From positions 1 through 35,997 of the forward strand of contig CAZAWP010000001.1 in the NCBI GenBank assembly GCA_964488855.1: a DNA stretch of 35,997 bases, in the 5' to 3' direction. A model generated the notes under the pieces. That model was not told the DNA's origin and did not search any database. It saw only the letters and a program-made list of their open reading frames with translations. Origin of the DNA: an uncultured Sangeribacter sp. (GTDB taxonomy: Bacteria; Bacteroidota; Bacteroidia; Bacteroidales; Muribaculaceae). Both the position numbers and the translations under genes were made by a program. Shown here piece by piece: positions 500 to 34,654 of this stretch. The first letter of the stretch is position 1, and each line of letters opens with the position of its first letter.

Positions 500-589
500 C
501 AGACTTGCAAAAATAACCTCCTGAAAGGGGCGCTTCTGAGATCATATCATTTATGTTTAATTGTAATCCATGATGAATAAATTTCAATC

Positions 590-1858
590 ATGGATAAAAA
601 AAATTTGTCCAGCCTCAAAGCGTGTTTCACTGTATTAGGGTATACGATACCCGTTGTGCATCAGGGCAATAACCCGTACATTGATTTTTATTACCTGAGT
701 CGAATCACCCGAACCAAGAAACGCAAAAAAATTATGCTGCCGGGTATCCTTAACAGGCTCAAAAAATCGGGAAGAAAGCGAGACGCAACGCGGATGATAA
801 ATCAGTTCATTTCTGATCTGACCGCTAAACTTGAGGCCGGATGGCGTCCCGATGAAGATTACACCACTTTGCCGGTAAAATCCGGCGTTGAAATTACATC
901 AACAAAAATTGACGAATCTGTTACTGTTTCTTTGAGTGATATGCAACCCGCGGAACCGGCACAGCCGGCAAACCGCCAAAAACTTGCAGACCTGTTCGAC
1001 CGCTTCATTTTATCTTGCGGCAAGAAATTACGGCCAAAGTCCCTGAAGTGTTATGAGAGCGGTGTGAACGTCTTGCGCCGGTATAACGACGAGCTCGACG
1101 AACCGATCGTCTATGTCGATCAATTCACCCGGGAATATATTGCAACGTTCCTTGAGCATATATACCTTGACCGCAACAGTAATGCCAGGACCCGAAACAA
1201 TTATCTCGGAATCTGCTCCGCATTCGGCACCTACCTCGAAGAGAAGGGACTGGTCGAGGTTAATCCGACTTTAAAGATCTCAAAACTTGTACCCCCTCCC
1301 AAACGCCGGCAACCACTCACCGAAGAGATGCTCAAGGAGCTGCACGATTTTCTATCAGAGCATGACCCCTACTTCCTGCTTGCCTGTCAGATGCAATATT
1401 ACACCTTGATCAGACCCAACGAGCTTGCACATATTCGCCTTAGCGACATCTCTCTCAAGGATCAGACGGTGACTGTTACCGCCGAGGTGTCCAAAAACAA
1501 GCGCGGTGCCAAGGTCGGATTATCCGCCGAGGTAATCCACCTCATGCTGGATCTGGGAGTCCTTGACAATCCCCCGGGATGTTACCTCTTCAGCAAGGAC
1601 TTCCGCCCCGGTGTGGACTTGCAAAGTCCCGACATCTTTAACAAACGCTGGTGCAAGTGGCGCGCCCGCCTGAAGTGGTCGCCGGATTATAAATTCTACA
1701 GCCTGAAAGATTCCGGAATCCGCGACCTTGCCAACTCCGAGGGCATAGTGATCGCCCGAGACCAGGCCCGACATACCGATATTGCCACTACCAACAAGTA
1801 TTTAGGTCAGATCTCGGGTGCACACGAAGAGACCAAGAAATTTAAAGGGTTTCTATGA
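590..1858 (+). CDS. int: Tyrosine recombinase / phage integrase
   Basis: SAM-like core-binding region (NARTRNNYL), IRPNEL, SKNK, FYSLKDSG, QARH...TTNKY; adjacent to attL. Confidence 0.93.
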   Translation: MDKKNLSSLKACFTVLGYTIPVVHQGNNPYIDFYYLSRITRTKKRKKIMLPGILNRLKKSGRKRDATRMINQFISDLTAKLEAGWRPDEDYTTLPVKSGVEITSTKIDESVTVSLSDMQPAEPAQPANRQKLADLFDRFILSCGKKLRPKSLKCYESGVNVLRRYNDELDEPIVYVDQFTREYIATFLEHIYLDRNSNARTRNNYLGICSAFGTYLEEKGLVEVNPTLKISKLVPPPKRRQPLTEEMLKELHDFLSEHDPYFLLACQMQYYTLIRPNELAHIRLSDISLKDQTVTVTAEVSKNKRGAKVGLSAEVIHLMLDLGVLDNPPGCYLFSKDFRPGVDLQSPDIFNKRWCKWRARLKWSPDYKFYSLKDSGIRDLANSEGIVIARDQARHTDIATTNKYLGQISGAHEETKKFKGFL

Positions 1859-8147: not shown

Positions 8148-8185
8148 AATAAAAAAGACGTCCGACCCTCACGAGCCGGACATCC
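8148..8185 (-). terminator. Intrinsic terminator, copy 1 of a perfect 38-bp direct repeat
   Basis: Minus strand GGATGTCCGGCTC-GTGA-GGGTCGGACGTC-TTTTTT; identical to 8735-8772. Confidence 0.8.
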
Positions 8186-8238
8186 CAAATCAAATCTTTG
8201 ATATGAAATATAAATGCTTCAGCAAAACACAGGAGGCC

Positions 8239-8649
8239 TCAGCATAGATCTACAGCAGCCAAGTCGGCTGCGAGCGTTTTAAGACCTTTGCGGATCTTGT
8301 CGACGGTCTTCTCGGAGGGGTGACGGTAACCGGTGGCGTATTGCGACAGCTGTGCCGCCGAGACCCCGGTGAGATTGGCGAGACCCTTGAAGGTCAGCAG
8401 ATGACCGTAATACGACAGGAACGACGGCACATCGTAGGCGAACTTAAAAGAAGCCTCGGTAAACGGAATACCCTGCTTGGCAAAATCCTCTCTAAAGGCC
8501 TCATAAACTCTATACCATTCATCTATAGCCTCCTTGGCAGTTCTACCCTCTCCCATCGGACTATAATTAAGATCATTCTCTTCAGGACAAAGAGAATAAG
8601 ATCCATCCGCCTCTTTATAAACATATACTTTTATTTCTTTCATGGACAT
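8239..8649 (-). CDS. hicB: HicB-like antitoxin with C-terminal XRE HTH (no hicA present)
   Basis: N-terminal ...DGSYS...GEGRTAKEAI... HicB-like fold; C-terminal GLANLTGVSAAQLSQYATG HTH; upstream inverted repeat TGCTATTT-N4-AAATAGCA (~8675-8694). Confidence 0.75.
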   Translation of the reverse strand: MSMKEIKVYVYKEADGSYSLCPEENDLNYSPMGEGRTAKEAIDEWYRVYEAFREDFAKQGIPFTEASFKFAYDVPSFLSYYGHLLTFKGLANLTGVSAAQLSQYATGYRHPSEKTVDKIRKGLKTLAADLAAVDLC

Positions 8650-8734
8650 GCTGTTAAAACAATCTCTAAAATAATGCTATTTTTTGAAATAGCAAAATAA
8701 ATTGAGAAAATAATTAATATTTTTTTGGTGTTGG

Positions 8735-8772
8735 AATAAAAAAGACGTCCGACCCTCACGAGCCGGACATCC
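8735..8772 (-). terminator. Intrinsic terminator, copy 2 of the 38-bp direct repeat
   Basis: Same hairpin and U-tract as 8148-8185; ends the 10203-8806 operon. Confidence 0.8.
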
Positions 8773-8805
8773 AGAAAATTTCAATCATGAATGTAAAAAT
8801 GTCGC

Positions 8806-9978: not shown

Positions 9979-10203
9979 TTAGATTTCGGTTGAGAGGGTT
10001 GTGAGGAGGAGGAGGGCTGCGAGGTGGTTGAGCGCGTCGATGCCGGAGGCTATGCCGGCGAGGGCGAGGACGAGGGCGGCGGCATATAGCGCCGGGGCAT
10101 GGCGGCGGATGGCGGCGCGGCAGCGGTTACGGACGATGCGGTAAAAATCGCGGATTGGTTCAACGCCGGCAGCGCCGACGGTCTTTAGATAAGTTGCCTT
10201 CAT
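9979..10203 (-). CDS. Small hydrophobic protein (74 aa), first gene under C4/CI-like antisense control
   Basis: Start MKATYLKT (ATG 10203); basic N-terminus and hydrophobic C-terminal helices. Confidence 0.65.
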   Translation of the reverse strand: MKATYLKTVGAAGVEPIRDFYRIVRNRCRAAIRRHAPALYAAALVLALAGIASGIDALNHLAALLLLTTLSTEI

Positions 10204-10238
10204 TGTTGTAGATGTTTTGGCATTACAGACAGAAAAAC

Positions 10239-10313
10239 GGCTGTCATATCCCGTTCGCCAAAACATCTACAAGGTTTCCTCCGCAGAGCAAAAATTGTGT
10301 GGATATGACAGCC
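10239..10313 (-). ncRNA. P4-CI / P1-C4-like antisense RNA
   Basis: 13-bp closing stem (10239-10251 / 10301-10313) enclosing two segments complementary to the transcript 5' leader (10391-10400, 10415-10427) and to the start region of the next ORF (10206-10221). Confidence 0.7.
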
Positions 10314-10431
10314 TTTATGAATTACAGCTGATATGTATGTGAGGAGTCGGGCATAAAAAAAGCCCGAGCAGATTCGAGCATTTATCCGAATGCTCCGCGG
10401 TTACGGGATACCCCGTAGATGATTGGCACCA

Positions 10432-10463
10432 CAAAAGTACATAATAATTTTTAATTATGCAAA
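10432..10463 (-). promoter_or_regulatory. Sigma-A promoter of the antisense-RNA / small-ORF operon
   Basis: Minus strand TTTG (10463-10460) - 20 nt - TACTTTTG (10439-10432). Confidence 0.75.
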
Positions 10464-10471
10464 TAAAAAAT

Positions 10472-10618
10472 AAAAAACCCCCGCCAGTCCGGCGAGGGCT
10501 ACCGCTCTAAGTGAAATGGATTGCTAAATCATACAAGACGCAGAGCGGTCAGTTCCGAACCGAGGTTTAATCCTCGGTGTTATCAGCGACTTAACCCGGC
10601 AATCTTGCGAGTGCCGGC
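10472..10618 (-). ncRNA. Candidate ~150-nt structured small RNA
   Basis: TATATTTG -7 box at 10631-10624; hairpins at 10596-10617, 10559-10578 and 10501-10549; terminator 10478-10498 with U6; no ORF. Confidence 0.55.
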
Positions 10619-10854
10619 ACCGGCAAATATAGCGATTTTAAGCGATTTTTCACCGTAAAAAATCGGGTTTTCATGCGGTTTGTAAAGGGTTGAGGATGTT
10701 TAACGCCTGATTTTTAGGGGTTTGGGAGGTAAAAATAAAAAAATTGGTTAATGTTTGCCGTTAAAGAGCCCCCGACCACCCTGTCAGGGGGTCGGTTCAC
10801 CGCCCCTTTTTTCGGCGGAATATGCAAGACCCTGCACCAACAGCCGGGTAATAC

Positions 10855-11116
10855 AAAAAACAAGACCGAGGCTCTCACGAGTCCCGGTCTTCGTCACTAA
10901 TATGCAAAATGTTTACGTCGTTGCAATCCACCCGCACATCACTGCGAGGGATAGATTAAGGAGTATGCCCTAACCTATTAATTCACTAACCTGTTAAGAC
11001 ATTGTCTATTTGTATACGAGAATATCTGCAAAATCTAACGGATGCCACAGCATCCGGGATAAACTATACATAACATTATGAAACGATGTAATAATTCATC
11101 TGGCACTGACTTATTA
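10855..11116 (-). ncRNA. Candidate small-RNA array: three anti-start-codon segments, each followed by a hairpin
   Basis: TATATTTG -7 box at 11129-11122; hairpins at 11039-11056, 10925-10957 (GTGA loop) and 10862-10891 (GTGA loop, U-tract); no credible ORF. Confidence 0.6.
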
Positions 11117-11196
11117 CACTGCAAATATAATACATATCTGTAAAATAATTGCAATTCTGCATAAACAAATTTTACATAAACATGAATTTTACTAAT

Positions 11197-11739
11197 TCAA
11201 TTGCTATTGGTGTGGCGTCGGTTGTCGAGGTAGAGGATGAGGGCGATCAGGGCAATGGAGAAGAAGAATGCCCATAGGGAGCGGGTTGTGTCGGTGTCGC
11301 GGCGGGTGTCGGTGTCGTCGATGGCTGCCGCCGATGAAGATGCAACCGTCGATAATCCGGAGACGGCAACGGAGTCGGTAGCAACCGCCGAGACGGCAGC
11401 CATCGAGCCACTGAGAGCCTCTGTGGAGCCTTTTCTGCCTGCTGCCTTAATCTCGGTTGAACGTCGATACGTGCCGGCGCTGTCGCGGCTCTCGTTAATG
11501 AGGATGTGTAACGTTGTCACCGCCGAATCGGCACGGGTCAGAGCCGTAGTGGTCACAACCGTATCGAGGCGGGCGGTGGTTATATGTGTCATGGAATCCA
11601 CCACAAGCGCCGTAGAGGCTTGTGCGGTCGCGGATGAGTGATTGACCGTGTGCACGGTCTTCGGGCTGCATGAACAGCCACACGCCAAAAACAGGGCACT
11701 CAGCAGCAGTATGCAAAGGATCTTGATAAAAATTTTCAT
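11197..11739 (-). CDS. Spanin-like lipoprotein (possible unimolecular spanin)
   Basis: Start MKIFIKILCILLLSALFLACGC (signal peptide II-like), Thr/Ser-rich middle, C-terminal TM helix LWAFFFSIALIALILYL; follows the endolysin. Confidence 0.65.
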   Translation of the reverse strand: MKIFIKILCILLLSALFLACGCSCSPKTVHTVNHSSATAQASTALVVDSMTHITTARLDTVVTTTALTRADSAVTTLHILINESRDSAGTYRRSTEIKAAGRKGSTEALSGSMAAVSAVATDSVAVSGLSTVASSSAAAIDDTDTRRDTDTTRSLWAFFFSIALIALILYLDNRRHTNSN

Positions 11740-27665: not shown

Positions 27666-27887
27666 AAGTGTGCTAACTGTGCTACCGTATGTAACTTATT
27701 ATCATACAGCTATTTAAGTAGCACAATCAGGGGTGTGCTATCGGTTGTGCTGAAGTGTGCTGAAGTGTGCTAAGCACAGTTAGCACACCCTTAGCACACC
27801 TTTAGCACACTTCAAATTGCGGGAAGTGTGCTATAATAAATGTAATACTTTTAATCATTTACACAGCAATAGCACAGTAGCACACTT
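27666..27887. repeat. Iteron cluster, probable phage replication origin
   Basis: 7 x TGTGCT and 7 x AGCACA arranged roughly symmetrically about ~27772, with AT-rich flanks. Confidence 0.75.
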
Positions 27888-28044
27888 ATTATGCCGCTTT
27901 ATTTAGATAAAAATAAAAGAATAATATATAAAAATATTTATCTATCCGCGCAGCGAAAAATTTTTAACCGACATTCCCCGAAAAAATAAGGCAAGGAAAT
28001 GGTGCGGTCGAATGCCATCGACGCCCCGCATAAAGACCCCTCCA

Positions 28045-29009: not shown

Positions 29010-29054
29010 GAAAAATAGAAGCGCGATTGATGGCAGTACATCAATCGCGCTTCT
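29010..29054 (-). terminator. Terminator of the DUF5053 cassette
   Basis: Perfect 16-bp stem (29017-29032 / 29039-29054) followed by ATTTTT on the minus strand. Confidence 0.75.
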
Positions 29055-29090
29055 CATCGGATTATATTAAGTGAGTGATGAAAATACTAA

Positions 29091-29481: not shown

Positions 29482-29622
29482 TTAGACTTGTGTCAGCTCT
29501 TTGACTATTGCTCTGATGTAGTCTCTGAGGATTCTTTTGTCGCTTTTGTCTGTCATAGTCTTAAACTTTAACAGCAGTGCAACCACCTCGATAATTCTGA
29601 TTTTTAATTTTTCATCACTCAT
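29482..29622 (-). CDS. Unannotated 46-aa ORF (putative toxin/partner of DUF5053)
   Basis: MSDEKLKIRIIEVVALLLKFKTMTDKSDKRILRDYIRAIVKELTQV*; A-rich start downstream of a consensus promoter. Confidence 0.6.
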   Translation of the reverse strand: MSDEKLKIRIIEVVALLLKFKTMTDKSDKRILRDYIRAIVKELTQV

Positions 29623-34009: not shown

Positions 34010-34071
34010 TATATTTGTGGCGCAAAACAGTTACATATCTGTAACTCGTCACGTTTACGTTTGCAAATATA
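34010..34071. promoter_or_regulatory. Lysis/lysogeny switch: face-to-face promoters and operator
   Basis: TATATTTG on + (34010-34017) and on - (34071-34064); palindrome AGTTACA-TATC-TGTAACT (34029-34046) between them. Confidence 0.65.
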
Positions 34072-34092
34072 TATATTCATCATTAATAATTA

Positions 34093-34521
34093 ATGTTTAT
34101 GTCAAATTCATTAACATTCATTAACAAAATAGATTCGGGTAAATTCTTTAGTCAGAAGATTAAAGAACTTAAAGTCACAAGAAAGGAGCTTAGCAGTAGA
34201 CTAAATATTTCTCCTTCCGGAGTAACACGCATTCTAAATACGGAGAATATAACCATTAATCATTTCATCGAGGTTTGTAATGCTTTGGGTATTAATCCTA
34301 TAGAAATATTTAAAAACTCCGGAGAAGAGGGGAAGGTCTCAATAGGCAATGTTAAGCAGCACAATTATTCCGGTTCCAACAATGTCAATATCTCATCTGC
34401 ATCGCTTGACTTATTAGTAAATCAGTTAGCGGAAAAGGATAAATTAATTTCTGAAAAAGATAACATGATCGCCGAGAAAGAACGTTTCATTCAACATTTA
34501 TTGAGCGTAAAGTCAATTTAA
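34093..34521 (+). CDS. CI-like XRE-family repressor
   Basis: TRKELSSRLNISPSGVTRIL HTH and C-terminal coiled coil EKDKLISEKD; no peptidase domain. Confidence 0.8.
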   Translation: MFMSNSLTFINKIDSGKFFSQKIKELKVTRKELSSRLNISPSGVTRILNTENITINHFIEVCNALGINPIEIFKNSGEEGKVSIGNVKQHNYSGSNNVNISSASLDLLVNQLAEKDKLISEKDNMIAEKERFIQHLLSVKSI

Positions 34522-34635: not shown

Positions 34636-34654
34636 AATCCCTGTCTCTCCGCCA
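34636..34654 (+). repeat. attR
   Basis: AATCCCTGTCTCTCCGCCA, duplicating the tRNA-Ser 3' end. Confidence 0.9.

Follow-up and report, generated by a model that had tools for sequence, protein, structure and literature searches.

A prophage-borne candidate anti-start-codon RNA that combines a host-like seed with a predicted anti-repressor seed

A non-coding unit on the minus strand of the window (the whole 35,997-nt stretch of DNA that was analysed) is likely to specify a real regulatory RNA that is probably expressed. Two of its segments are complementary to translation starts: one closely resembles the seed of a genus-wide host sRNA candidate, and the other is predicted to pair with the start of the repressor gene of the prophage in which the unit resides. 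The best reading is that the closest type of RNA is the anti-start-codon sRNA exemplified by GibS and FopS, in this case carried by a prophage. The more complete proposal, a two-seed anti-start sRNA in which a host-derived seed and an anti-repressor seed act through the full mechanism described below, is tentative, and we give it somewhat less than an even chance.

The unit within the prophage

The genome from which the window comes (G000) is 73% complete; the window corresponds to its contig C1 and represents a temperate prophage, with genes for an integrase, a tape measure protein, an M15 endolysin, a terminase, a Clp-type head protease, a primase and an HTH repressor. A 19-nt near-repeat, present at 313-331 (the 3' end of a tRNA-Ser(TGA) gene) and at 34636-34654, probably marks the attachment sites. 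The nearest endolysins are 60-63% identical, and the nearest endolysin loci are Muribaculaceae records, which points to this family. The unit is located in the interval that separates the lysis genes from the tape measure gene, and the cargo of this interval varies among the related prophages listed, a subset of 18.

An initial annotation had described a non-coding minus-strand unit of about 260 nt with its own -7 box and terminator. This outline stands: the box is found at 11129-11122, the unit measures ~263 nt and it ends in a U-tailed GTGA terminator. Its features, all on the minus strand, are the following.

11122..11129, minus strand: -7 box of the Bacteroidota housekeeping type (TAnnTTTG), with no clear -33 box
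11088..11117, minus strand: 5' leader hairpin with a 7-bp base stem, abutting seed 1
11062..11087, minus strand: seed 1, an anti-start segment that equals the genus-wide host sRNA seed in 23/26 columns
11039..11056, minus strand: hairpin 1, 7 bp with a TGTG loop, terminator-like with a weak U tail
10951..11000, minus strand: segment 2 and an 11-bp hairpin, with the CAT of 10965 in the loop; its predicted pairings are at chance level
10931..10950, minus strand: hairpin 2, GTGA loop
10889..10921, minus strand: seed 3, complementary over 12 bp and 9 bp to the start and leader of the prophage repressor gene
10855..10891, minus strand: intrinsic terminator with a cGTGAg loop and a U tract

By analogy with the FopS-10 primers (PMC11697453, supplement 4), transcription of the unit would start near 11117. 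The 262-nt minus-strand RNA has a predicted fold of -79.3 kcal/mol (z -3.91), a value that is reached by 1/200 shuffles; the plus strand folds at -64.8, and the number of G-U pairs is 14 on the minus strand versus 6 on the plus strand. The 3' arm of hairpin 2 has an alternative pairing with seed 3 through a G-U-rich stem. Some 170 nt and several hairpins separate seed 1 from the terminator, and the weak U tail of hairpin 1 might give rise to a short RNA that carries seed 1 only. Within the unit there is no ATG-initiated ORF of more than 23 aa; a small ORF or type I toxin was rejected, the frames being just 21-23 aa long and non-hydrophobic.

The initial annotation divided the unit into three modules, each consisting of the reverse complement of a Bacteroidetes-style translation start and a hairpin. 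The three ATG contexts it named, at 11078, 10965 and 10902, are present as described, and the same is true of the hairpin loops (TGTG at 11056-11039, GTGA at 10950-10931 and GTGA in the terminator at 10891-10855). We scored the ATG contexts with a start matrix trained on our own gene calls (1540 predicted ATG starts). The context at 11078 indeed looks like a start (65th percentile), whereas those at 10902 (13th) and 10965 (4th) do not; in module 3 the ATG at 10909 provides a better anti-start register. Guides followed by hairpins do exist here, but they do not form three equivalent modules, and the 11-bp hairpin at 10978-10951 had been missed.

It is unlikely that the unit is a modular array of three guide RNAs, each with a hairpin of its own, from which processing would release units for the silencing of host or competitor mRNAs. 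U-rich segments do alternate with hairpins, seed 1 outperforms shuffles at host starts (see below), and seed 3 pairs with the start of a host exported protein (-18.9); moreover, targets may be missing from view, since the target screen covered the phage itself and a 73%-complete host genome. However, segment 2, whose ATG context ranks at the 4th percentile, pairs at the level of its shuffles both with host starts (12/25) and with phage starts (228/500), and as a guide it is unsupported. In relatives, segments 2 and 3 are matched at control level only: segment 2 in 1/100 genomes versus 2 control matches, and segment 3 in 5/100 genomes (7 matches) versus 11 control matches. The hairpins are not repeats of each other, and an array with a constant hairpin and variable guides was not found. 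Likewise, nothing CRISPR-like was detected, as judged from direct-repeat families in the unit (the 20 largest listed) and from searches for homologous arrays. The proposal of a three-guide cassette directed against host or competitor mRNAs is not supported: segment 2 stays at shuffle level, and segment 3 finds its best-supported partner in the repressor of the phage itself.

No homolog of the unit was detected by DNA comparison in 100 relatives (matches occurred only outside 10855-11129), in 40 related prophage stretches plus 80 terminase-anchored viral loci, in 160 endolysin-anchored loci, with the host sRNA profile over 2.8 Mb of phage loci, in the INPHARED phages, or with a promoter-plus-seed pattern in IMG/VR. 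This lack of homologs, and hence of covariation, counts against the two-seed proposal. The Rfam 15 covariance models gave no credible match at 10855-11129, and in the open-access literature searched we found neither a functional sRNA in Bacteroidales prophages nor a Muribaculaceae precedent.

Seed 1 and the host sRNA candidate

A fuzzy search of G000 yielded five non-phage near-identical copies of the seed 1 segment, each of which is followed by a GTGA hairpin. These belong to a larger family of host loci.

G000, C38:10829-10920, C68, C86, C92 and C107; L146-L175, L414 and L415: copies of the host sRNA candidate, with a GNRA-type terminator

The 17-nt seed pattern occurs in 116/121 genomes of the genus, versus 2 matches for the reversed-pattern control, and the extended form of the host seed in 1/250 other genomes of the order. 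Among the matches listed (30 loci), all 33 copies have a downstream hairpin, and the host copies share a 50-nt conserved body and a terminator-like hairpin. An ECF sigma gene adjoins at least 7/30 of the host loci. One locus consists of three copies in tandem; tandem copies are found in G496 and, by coordinates, also in G537 and G015. A GAAC-N17-TGTT-type promoter, of the ECF kind, precedes 31/39 host copies, and no such promoter was found at the phage unit (score -4.6 versus a training median of 23). The same motif also scores upstream of thiol peroxidase-, AhpC-, nitroreductase- and lipoprotein-like genes of G000 (named by eye), a gene set that suggests an oxidative or envelope stress regulon. 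The identity of the host ECF sigma factor with SigP or EcfO was considered and not established. None of 8 host loci matched an Rfam family at gathering score, and neither Rfam nor the literature searched contained a match for the candidate. Whatever the phage unit does, the host family represents a genus-wide, multi-copy, ECF-sigma-linked candidate for a stress sRNA, with predicted exported-protein targets.

Seed 1 is very likely truly related to this host seed. The two agree in 23/26 columns, one host copy shares the A variant of the phage seed, and one host subtype has a leader hairpin directly before the seed of which the first and last 4 nt are the same as in the phage leader. A generic start would lie within 1 mismatch of the host 17-mer with a probability of 4e-6, and the closest of 1716 predicted starts differs from it at 3 positions or more. 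Of the six near-match loci that were fetched, three turned out to be ordinary gene starts, showing that 17-mer matches by chance are possible at true starts. The host profile matches the unit with an E-value of 0.0088 in the window and 0.54 genome-wide (not significant), and the match covers positions 3-24 of 56; the second conserved block and the adjacent terminator of the host family were not found at the phage unit. An exact search of IMG/VR with the seed gave 58 matches, 57 of which were judged coding or unrelated and one of which (L229) is a full host-type copy. A metagenome scan returned 5 matches, all of the host leader-hairpin subtype; the pattern used was derived from L414, so these matches are not independent.

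Predicted targets were scored with a simple nearest-neighbour duplex model against 1709 predicted starts, which came from a simple in-house caller run on the 73%-complete genome, and signal peptides were assigned by a heuristic predictor. The host seed outperforms 25/25 shuffles at host starts, and 33/50 of its top targets are signal-peptide-like versus a 35% background (p 4e-6). Its best predicted target in G000 is a GtrA-family gene (C67:1486). The initial annotation had left it to shuffled controls whether the guides score better than chance at host start codons. Seed 1 does: the top-20 mean is reached by 0/25 plain and 1/120 core-fixed shuffles. Segment 2 (12/25) and segment 3 (9/25) do not. 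Seed 1 and the host seed have 12/50 top targets in common; exported proteins are not enriched among the top 50 of seed 1 (21/50, p 0.17), and its best pairing is weaker (-21.6 versus -29.6).

No specific host target of seed 1 emerges from these scores. Its best target is mmdA, a methylmalonyl-CoA decarboxylase alpha-type gene (Pfam carboxyl transferase) that presumably forms part of an operon; its score is reached by 9/120 core-fixed shuffles. As a conserved target mmdA was rejected, because among 30 orthologous leaders the match is found only in G000, and in the 29 relatives the gene ranks 43rd or lower. The start of the head protease gene, suggested as a partner of module 1 by 2/100 shuffles, was rejected at rank 72/286.

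The weaker pairing of a host-like seed, which moreover is partly folded away in the phage RNA, could also fit a decoy whose effect would be to sequester an RNA-binding protein or to disturb the host sRNA, without pairing to mRNA. A precedent for this is VpdS of phage VP882, for which the available part of a review reports competition with host sRNAs over Hfq (PMC12197685). Direct sponge pairing is excluded because seed 1 has the same polarity as the host sRNA. As regards a protein to be titrated, a search of 31 genus genomes for RRM-1 (PF00076)/RbpB proteins gave 0/31, with B. thetaiotaomicron positive as a control. Nor was a strong plus-strand promoter box (TAnnTTTGC) found near the unit. With these points against it we consider a decoy very improbable.

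Seed 3, the lysogeny genes and the sister modules

The prophage contains three further segments with a hairpin, at 8.2, 8.8 and 29.0 kb. These and the two predicted targets in lysogeny genes are listed here.

34074..34104, plus strand: start codons and leader of the repressor gene, an XRE/HTH gene at 34093-34521, with which seed 3 is predicted to pair
575..600, plus strand: start region of the integrase gene, with which the 8.8 kb module is predicted to pair
8735..8803, minus strand: sister module, an anti-start segment and a GTGA terminator; the best partner is the integrase start
8148..8220, minus strand: sister module 3' of a HicB-like gene; the segment resembles the complement of hicA-type starts
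29020..29090, minus strand: sister module 3' of a DUF5053 gene; it complements the start of a 46-aa gene just upstream (29622)

Upstream of the repressor gene there is a separate -7 box, at 34056, that belongs to it. In the predicted duplex with seed 3, a 12-bp helix covers two in-frame start codons and a 9-bp helix is formed on the leader. The initial annotation had seen no convincing phage target for the three modules of the unit, which in view of these 12 + 9 bp with the phage's own repressor start is probably wrong for module 3. The best score of seed 3 among 35 phage starts is reached by 5/500 shuffles, with segment boundaries chosen by hand and seven segments tested. We also ran the screen in reverse, with the 35 phage starts against 206 of the phage's own non-coding windows and 100 shuffles each. 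Only two starts gave pairings reached by 0/100 shuffles: that of the integrase gene, whose partner is the 8.8 kb module, and that of the repressor gene, whose partner is module 3. Both partner segments lie directly 5' of GTGA terminators, and in none of 12 other prophages does the best site equal either pair (0/12). With the whole unit RNA, the repressor start is the best of 37 tested (-17.6). When folding is counted, the repressor ranks 5/387 for module 3, and the integrase pair of the 8.8 kb module ranks 42/387. Self-targeting as a general prophage pattern was rejected: in related prophages, 1/10 repressor starts (a weak site) and 0/9 integrase starts beat all controls. The integrase leader (560-600) contains a 9-bp inverted repeat that could hide the start codon; the predicted pairing of the 8.8 kb module involves the loop and 3' arm of this repeat.

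These results bear on the view that the unit is a fragment of a captured host sRNA gene, surrounded by ordinary terminators in a hot spot for cargo and undergoing decay, and that the repressor match is a chance product of AU-rich sequence. In line with decay are the variation of the lysis-to-tape-measure interval among related prophages (among the matches listed), a neighbouring hicAB module without hicA, and the fact that the unit is a singleton. In addition, anti-start segments 5' of GYGA-loop terminators are common in G000 (8/31 versus 14/232 for other terminators, p 0.0015); 5/8 of the GYGA cases are phage or paralog copies, so not all are independent and the enrichment is overstated. Clearly, the combination of a seed and a GYGA terminator is not unique to this phage. 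However, the promoter box and terminator of the unit are intact, its fold is stable (z -3.9) and its G-U pairs are strand-biased. Moreover, the two lysogeny genes are the top two of 35 in an unbiased screen, and among 382 AT-rich starts the 33-nt seed 3 scores best with the repressor. Decay with a chance match is, in our judgement, fairly unlikely.

Seed 3 has three partners of nearly equal score (-19.2, -19.1 and -18.9): besides the repressor start these are the start of a spanin-like lipoprotein gene (-19.2) and that of the host exported protein (-18.9). The spanin-like start, at 11739, is the top of 1709 starts; "spanin-like" is inferred from gene position and a lipobox-like motif, with no Pfam or PHROG match. 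No minus-strand terminator-like site was seen between 12300 and 11056, that is, from the lysis genes to the unit. The unit might accordingly be the 3' end of the lysis operon mRNA, in which seed 3 folds back in cis on the spanin-like gene start and so stops leaky lysis. Such control is known from hok-type type I toxin mRNAs, in which a 3' segment pairs with the translation start on the same transcript. The sister modules at 29.0 and 8.2 kb would fit in-cis fold-back in the manner of hok. At 29.0 kb, the score of the segment with the start of the upstream 46-aa gene, on the same transcript, is reached by 3/500 shuffles. For the 8.2 kb segment no phage target was found (201/500 shuffles), and it resembles the complement of the hicA starts in L126 and L336. 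For the unit itself, however, fold-back is quite unlikely: the spanin-like start is not significant in the reverse screen (25/100), and the internal promoter box and the host-like seed 1 would be left unexplained.

The neighbourhood of the 8.2 kb module (8239-8735) contains an orphan HicB-like gene with an operator-like palindrome that matches the hicAB modules of L336 and L126; its promoter box and hicA appear to have been deleted. In L126 (13230-13260) the terminator is closely preceded, in the 3' region of hicB, by 13 nt that perfectly complement the hicA leader of that module. This is one of the points in line with fold-back and possibly reflects fold-back control in type II toxin-antitoxin modules.

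The initial annotation had reported the same guide-plus-hairpin geometry at 8.2, 8.8 and 29.0 kb, with targets inside the window for two of the three. Predicted partners are indeed present for the 8.8 kb module (integrase start) and the 29.0 kb module (46-aa gene at 29622). As to the geometry, one and the same 38-nt hairpin occurs at 8.2 and 8.8 kb, but the hairpin at 29.0 kb has no GTGA loop.

Related systems and possible mode of action

The closest parallels come from B. thetaiotaomicron. According to the part of the GibS study available (PMC7366714), this sRNA uses AU-rich single-stranded seeds over start codons, has two seeds (R1 and R2) and is driven by the non-canonical promoter PM2, which is described with TGTT in the -10 element in the accessible text of PMC12596196. 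The unit resembles GibS in having two AU-rich predicted anti-start seeds in one RNA, and the PM2 -10 element resembles the promoter of the host sRNA family. The unit differs from what is given there for GibS in its seed, its location in a prophage, its length of ~263 nt, its housekeeping-type box and the fact that one seed is aimed at a phage gene.

FopS, as far as described in the available part of PMC11697453, is a multi-copy host family with an anti-start 5' seed, an intrinsic terminator and a housekeeping promoter, for which spread by phages has been suggested and of which a copy is reported in a Caudovirales phage; the lineage is stated to lack Hfq. The unit shares the anti-start 5' seed, the intrinsic terminator and the TAnnTTTG promoter (the -33 box not being clear) with the FopS described there, but contains several structured domains, whereas FopS has one seed and one hairpin. 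This FopS plan, a 5' seed directly followed by one terminator hairpin, is seen in the modules at 8.2 and 8.8 kb.

The likeness to the RbpB-bound FopS RNAs, drawn in the initial annotation, holds for the architecture only. That the unit is a phage-borne member of this family is extremely improbable, even with a similar plan of U-rich 5' seed and terminator, the reported phage copy and a FopS-like copy in G000 (C125). The FopS R1 pattern, taken from the primers in the paper, has no match in the window at <=2 mismatches, which on the criterion of the seed refutes membership; an exact R1 match is present elsewhere in G000, at C125. The predicted targets overlap with those of the host FopS copy in 1/50 cases, and the absence of RRM-1 proteins from the genus sample argues against binding of the unit RNA by RbpB. 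FopS-like copies were seen at G000:C125:5945-6001 and L342:6548-6563, in Muribaculaceae-type genomes, with an R1 seed that has one A>G change.

Prophage sRNAs that act on the host envelope or on superinfection are reviewed in PMC12197685, and in the part available include IpeX (OmpC), STnc6030, sas and the OOP/aQ antisense RNAs. The unit is like these in being a prophage RNA for which lower translation of host surface proteins or phage switch genes is predicted. OOP, aQ, sas and STnc6030 are tabulated there as cis-encoded; unlike these, the anti-repressor segment is located 23 kb from its target and the anti-integrase segment 8 kb. The accessible text of that review contains no Bacteroidota example ("Bacteroid": 0 occurrences).

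If the unit is indeed a two-seed anti-start sRNA, it may work as follows. Seed 1, transcribed from a housekeeping promoter, would cover the start codons of some host mRNAs regardless of stress. Since the predicted targets of the host seed are mainly exported proteins, the unit would dampen their translation. Seed 3 and the 8.8 kb module would lower translation of two lysogeny genes, those of the repressor and the integrase. One can speculate that weak termination at hairpin 1 and the masking of seed 3 by G-U pairing leave mostly seed-1 activity in the lysogen, and that during lytic growth seed 3 might be supplied by read-through from the lysis operon.

How such an RNA arose is a matter on which we are more hesitant. 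It is conceivable, though on balance doubtful, that the phage captured the seed of a host stress sRNA, rewired it to a housekeeping promoter and fused it to an anti-repressor seed. Together with the anti-integrase module this would add to the lysis-lysogeny switch a layer of RNA control in trans, for which a seed and a GTGA terminator serve as a reusable part. With a captured seed, the housekeeping-driven seed 1 would keep exported or surface proteins at a low level in the lysogen. If true, this would be a case of sRNA mimicry, in which a phage borrows a host regulatory seed. It would also be trans-encoded antisense control of a repressor and an integrase in a lineage without Hfq, and in which no RbpB-type protein was found.

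Finally, three other non-coding stretches of the prophage deserve mention. A strongly structured leader with internal complementary repeats (10200-10450) lies 5' of four small genes and has homologs in the related prophages L138, L139, L126, L140, L134, L094 and L132; near-identical leaders are common to three genes downstream of it. We take this arrangement to be reminiscent of the P1 C4 / P4 CI antisense immunity regions. Next to it, at 10470-10631, is a separate short promoter-to-terminator unit (box at 10631, terminator at 10500-10476), of which ~80 nt also adjoin the lysis genes in another prophage (G030:C24, L421). At 27690-27890, direct and inverted short repeats are clustered in a 570-nt non-coding gap, which is possibly a replication origin or a packaging site.
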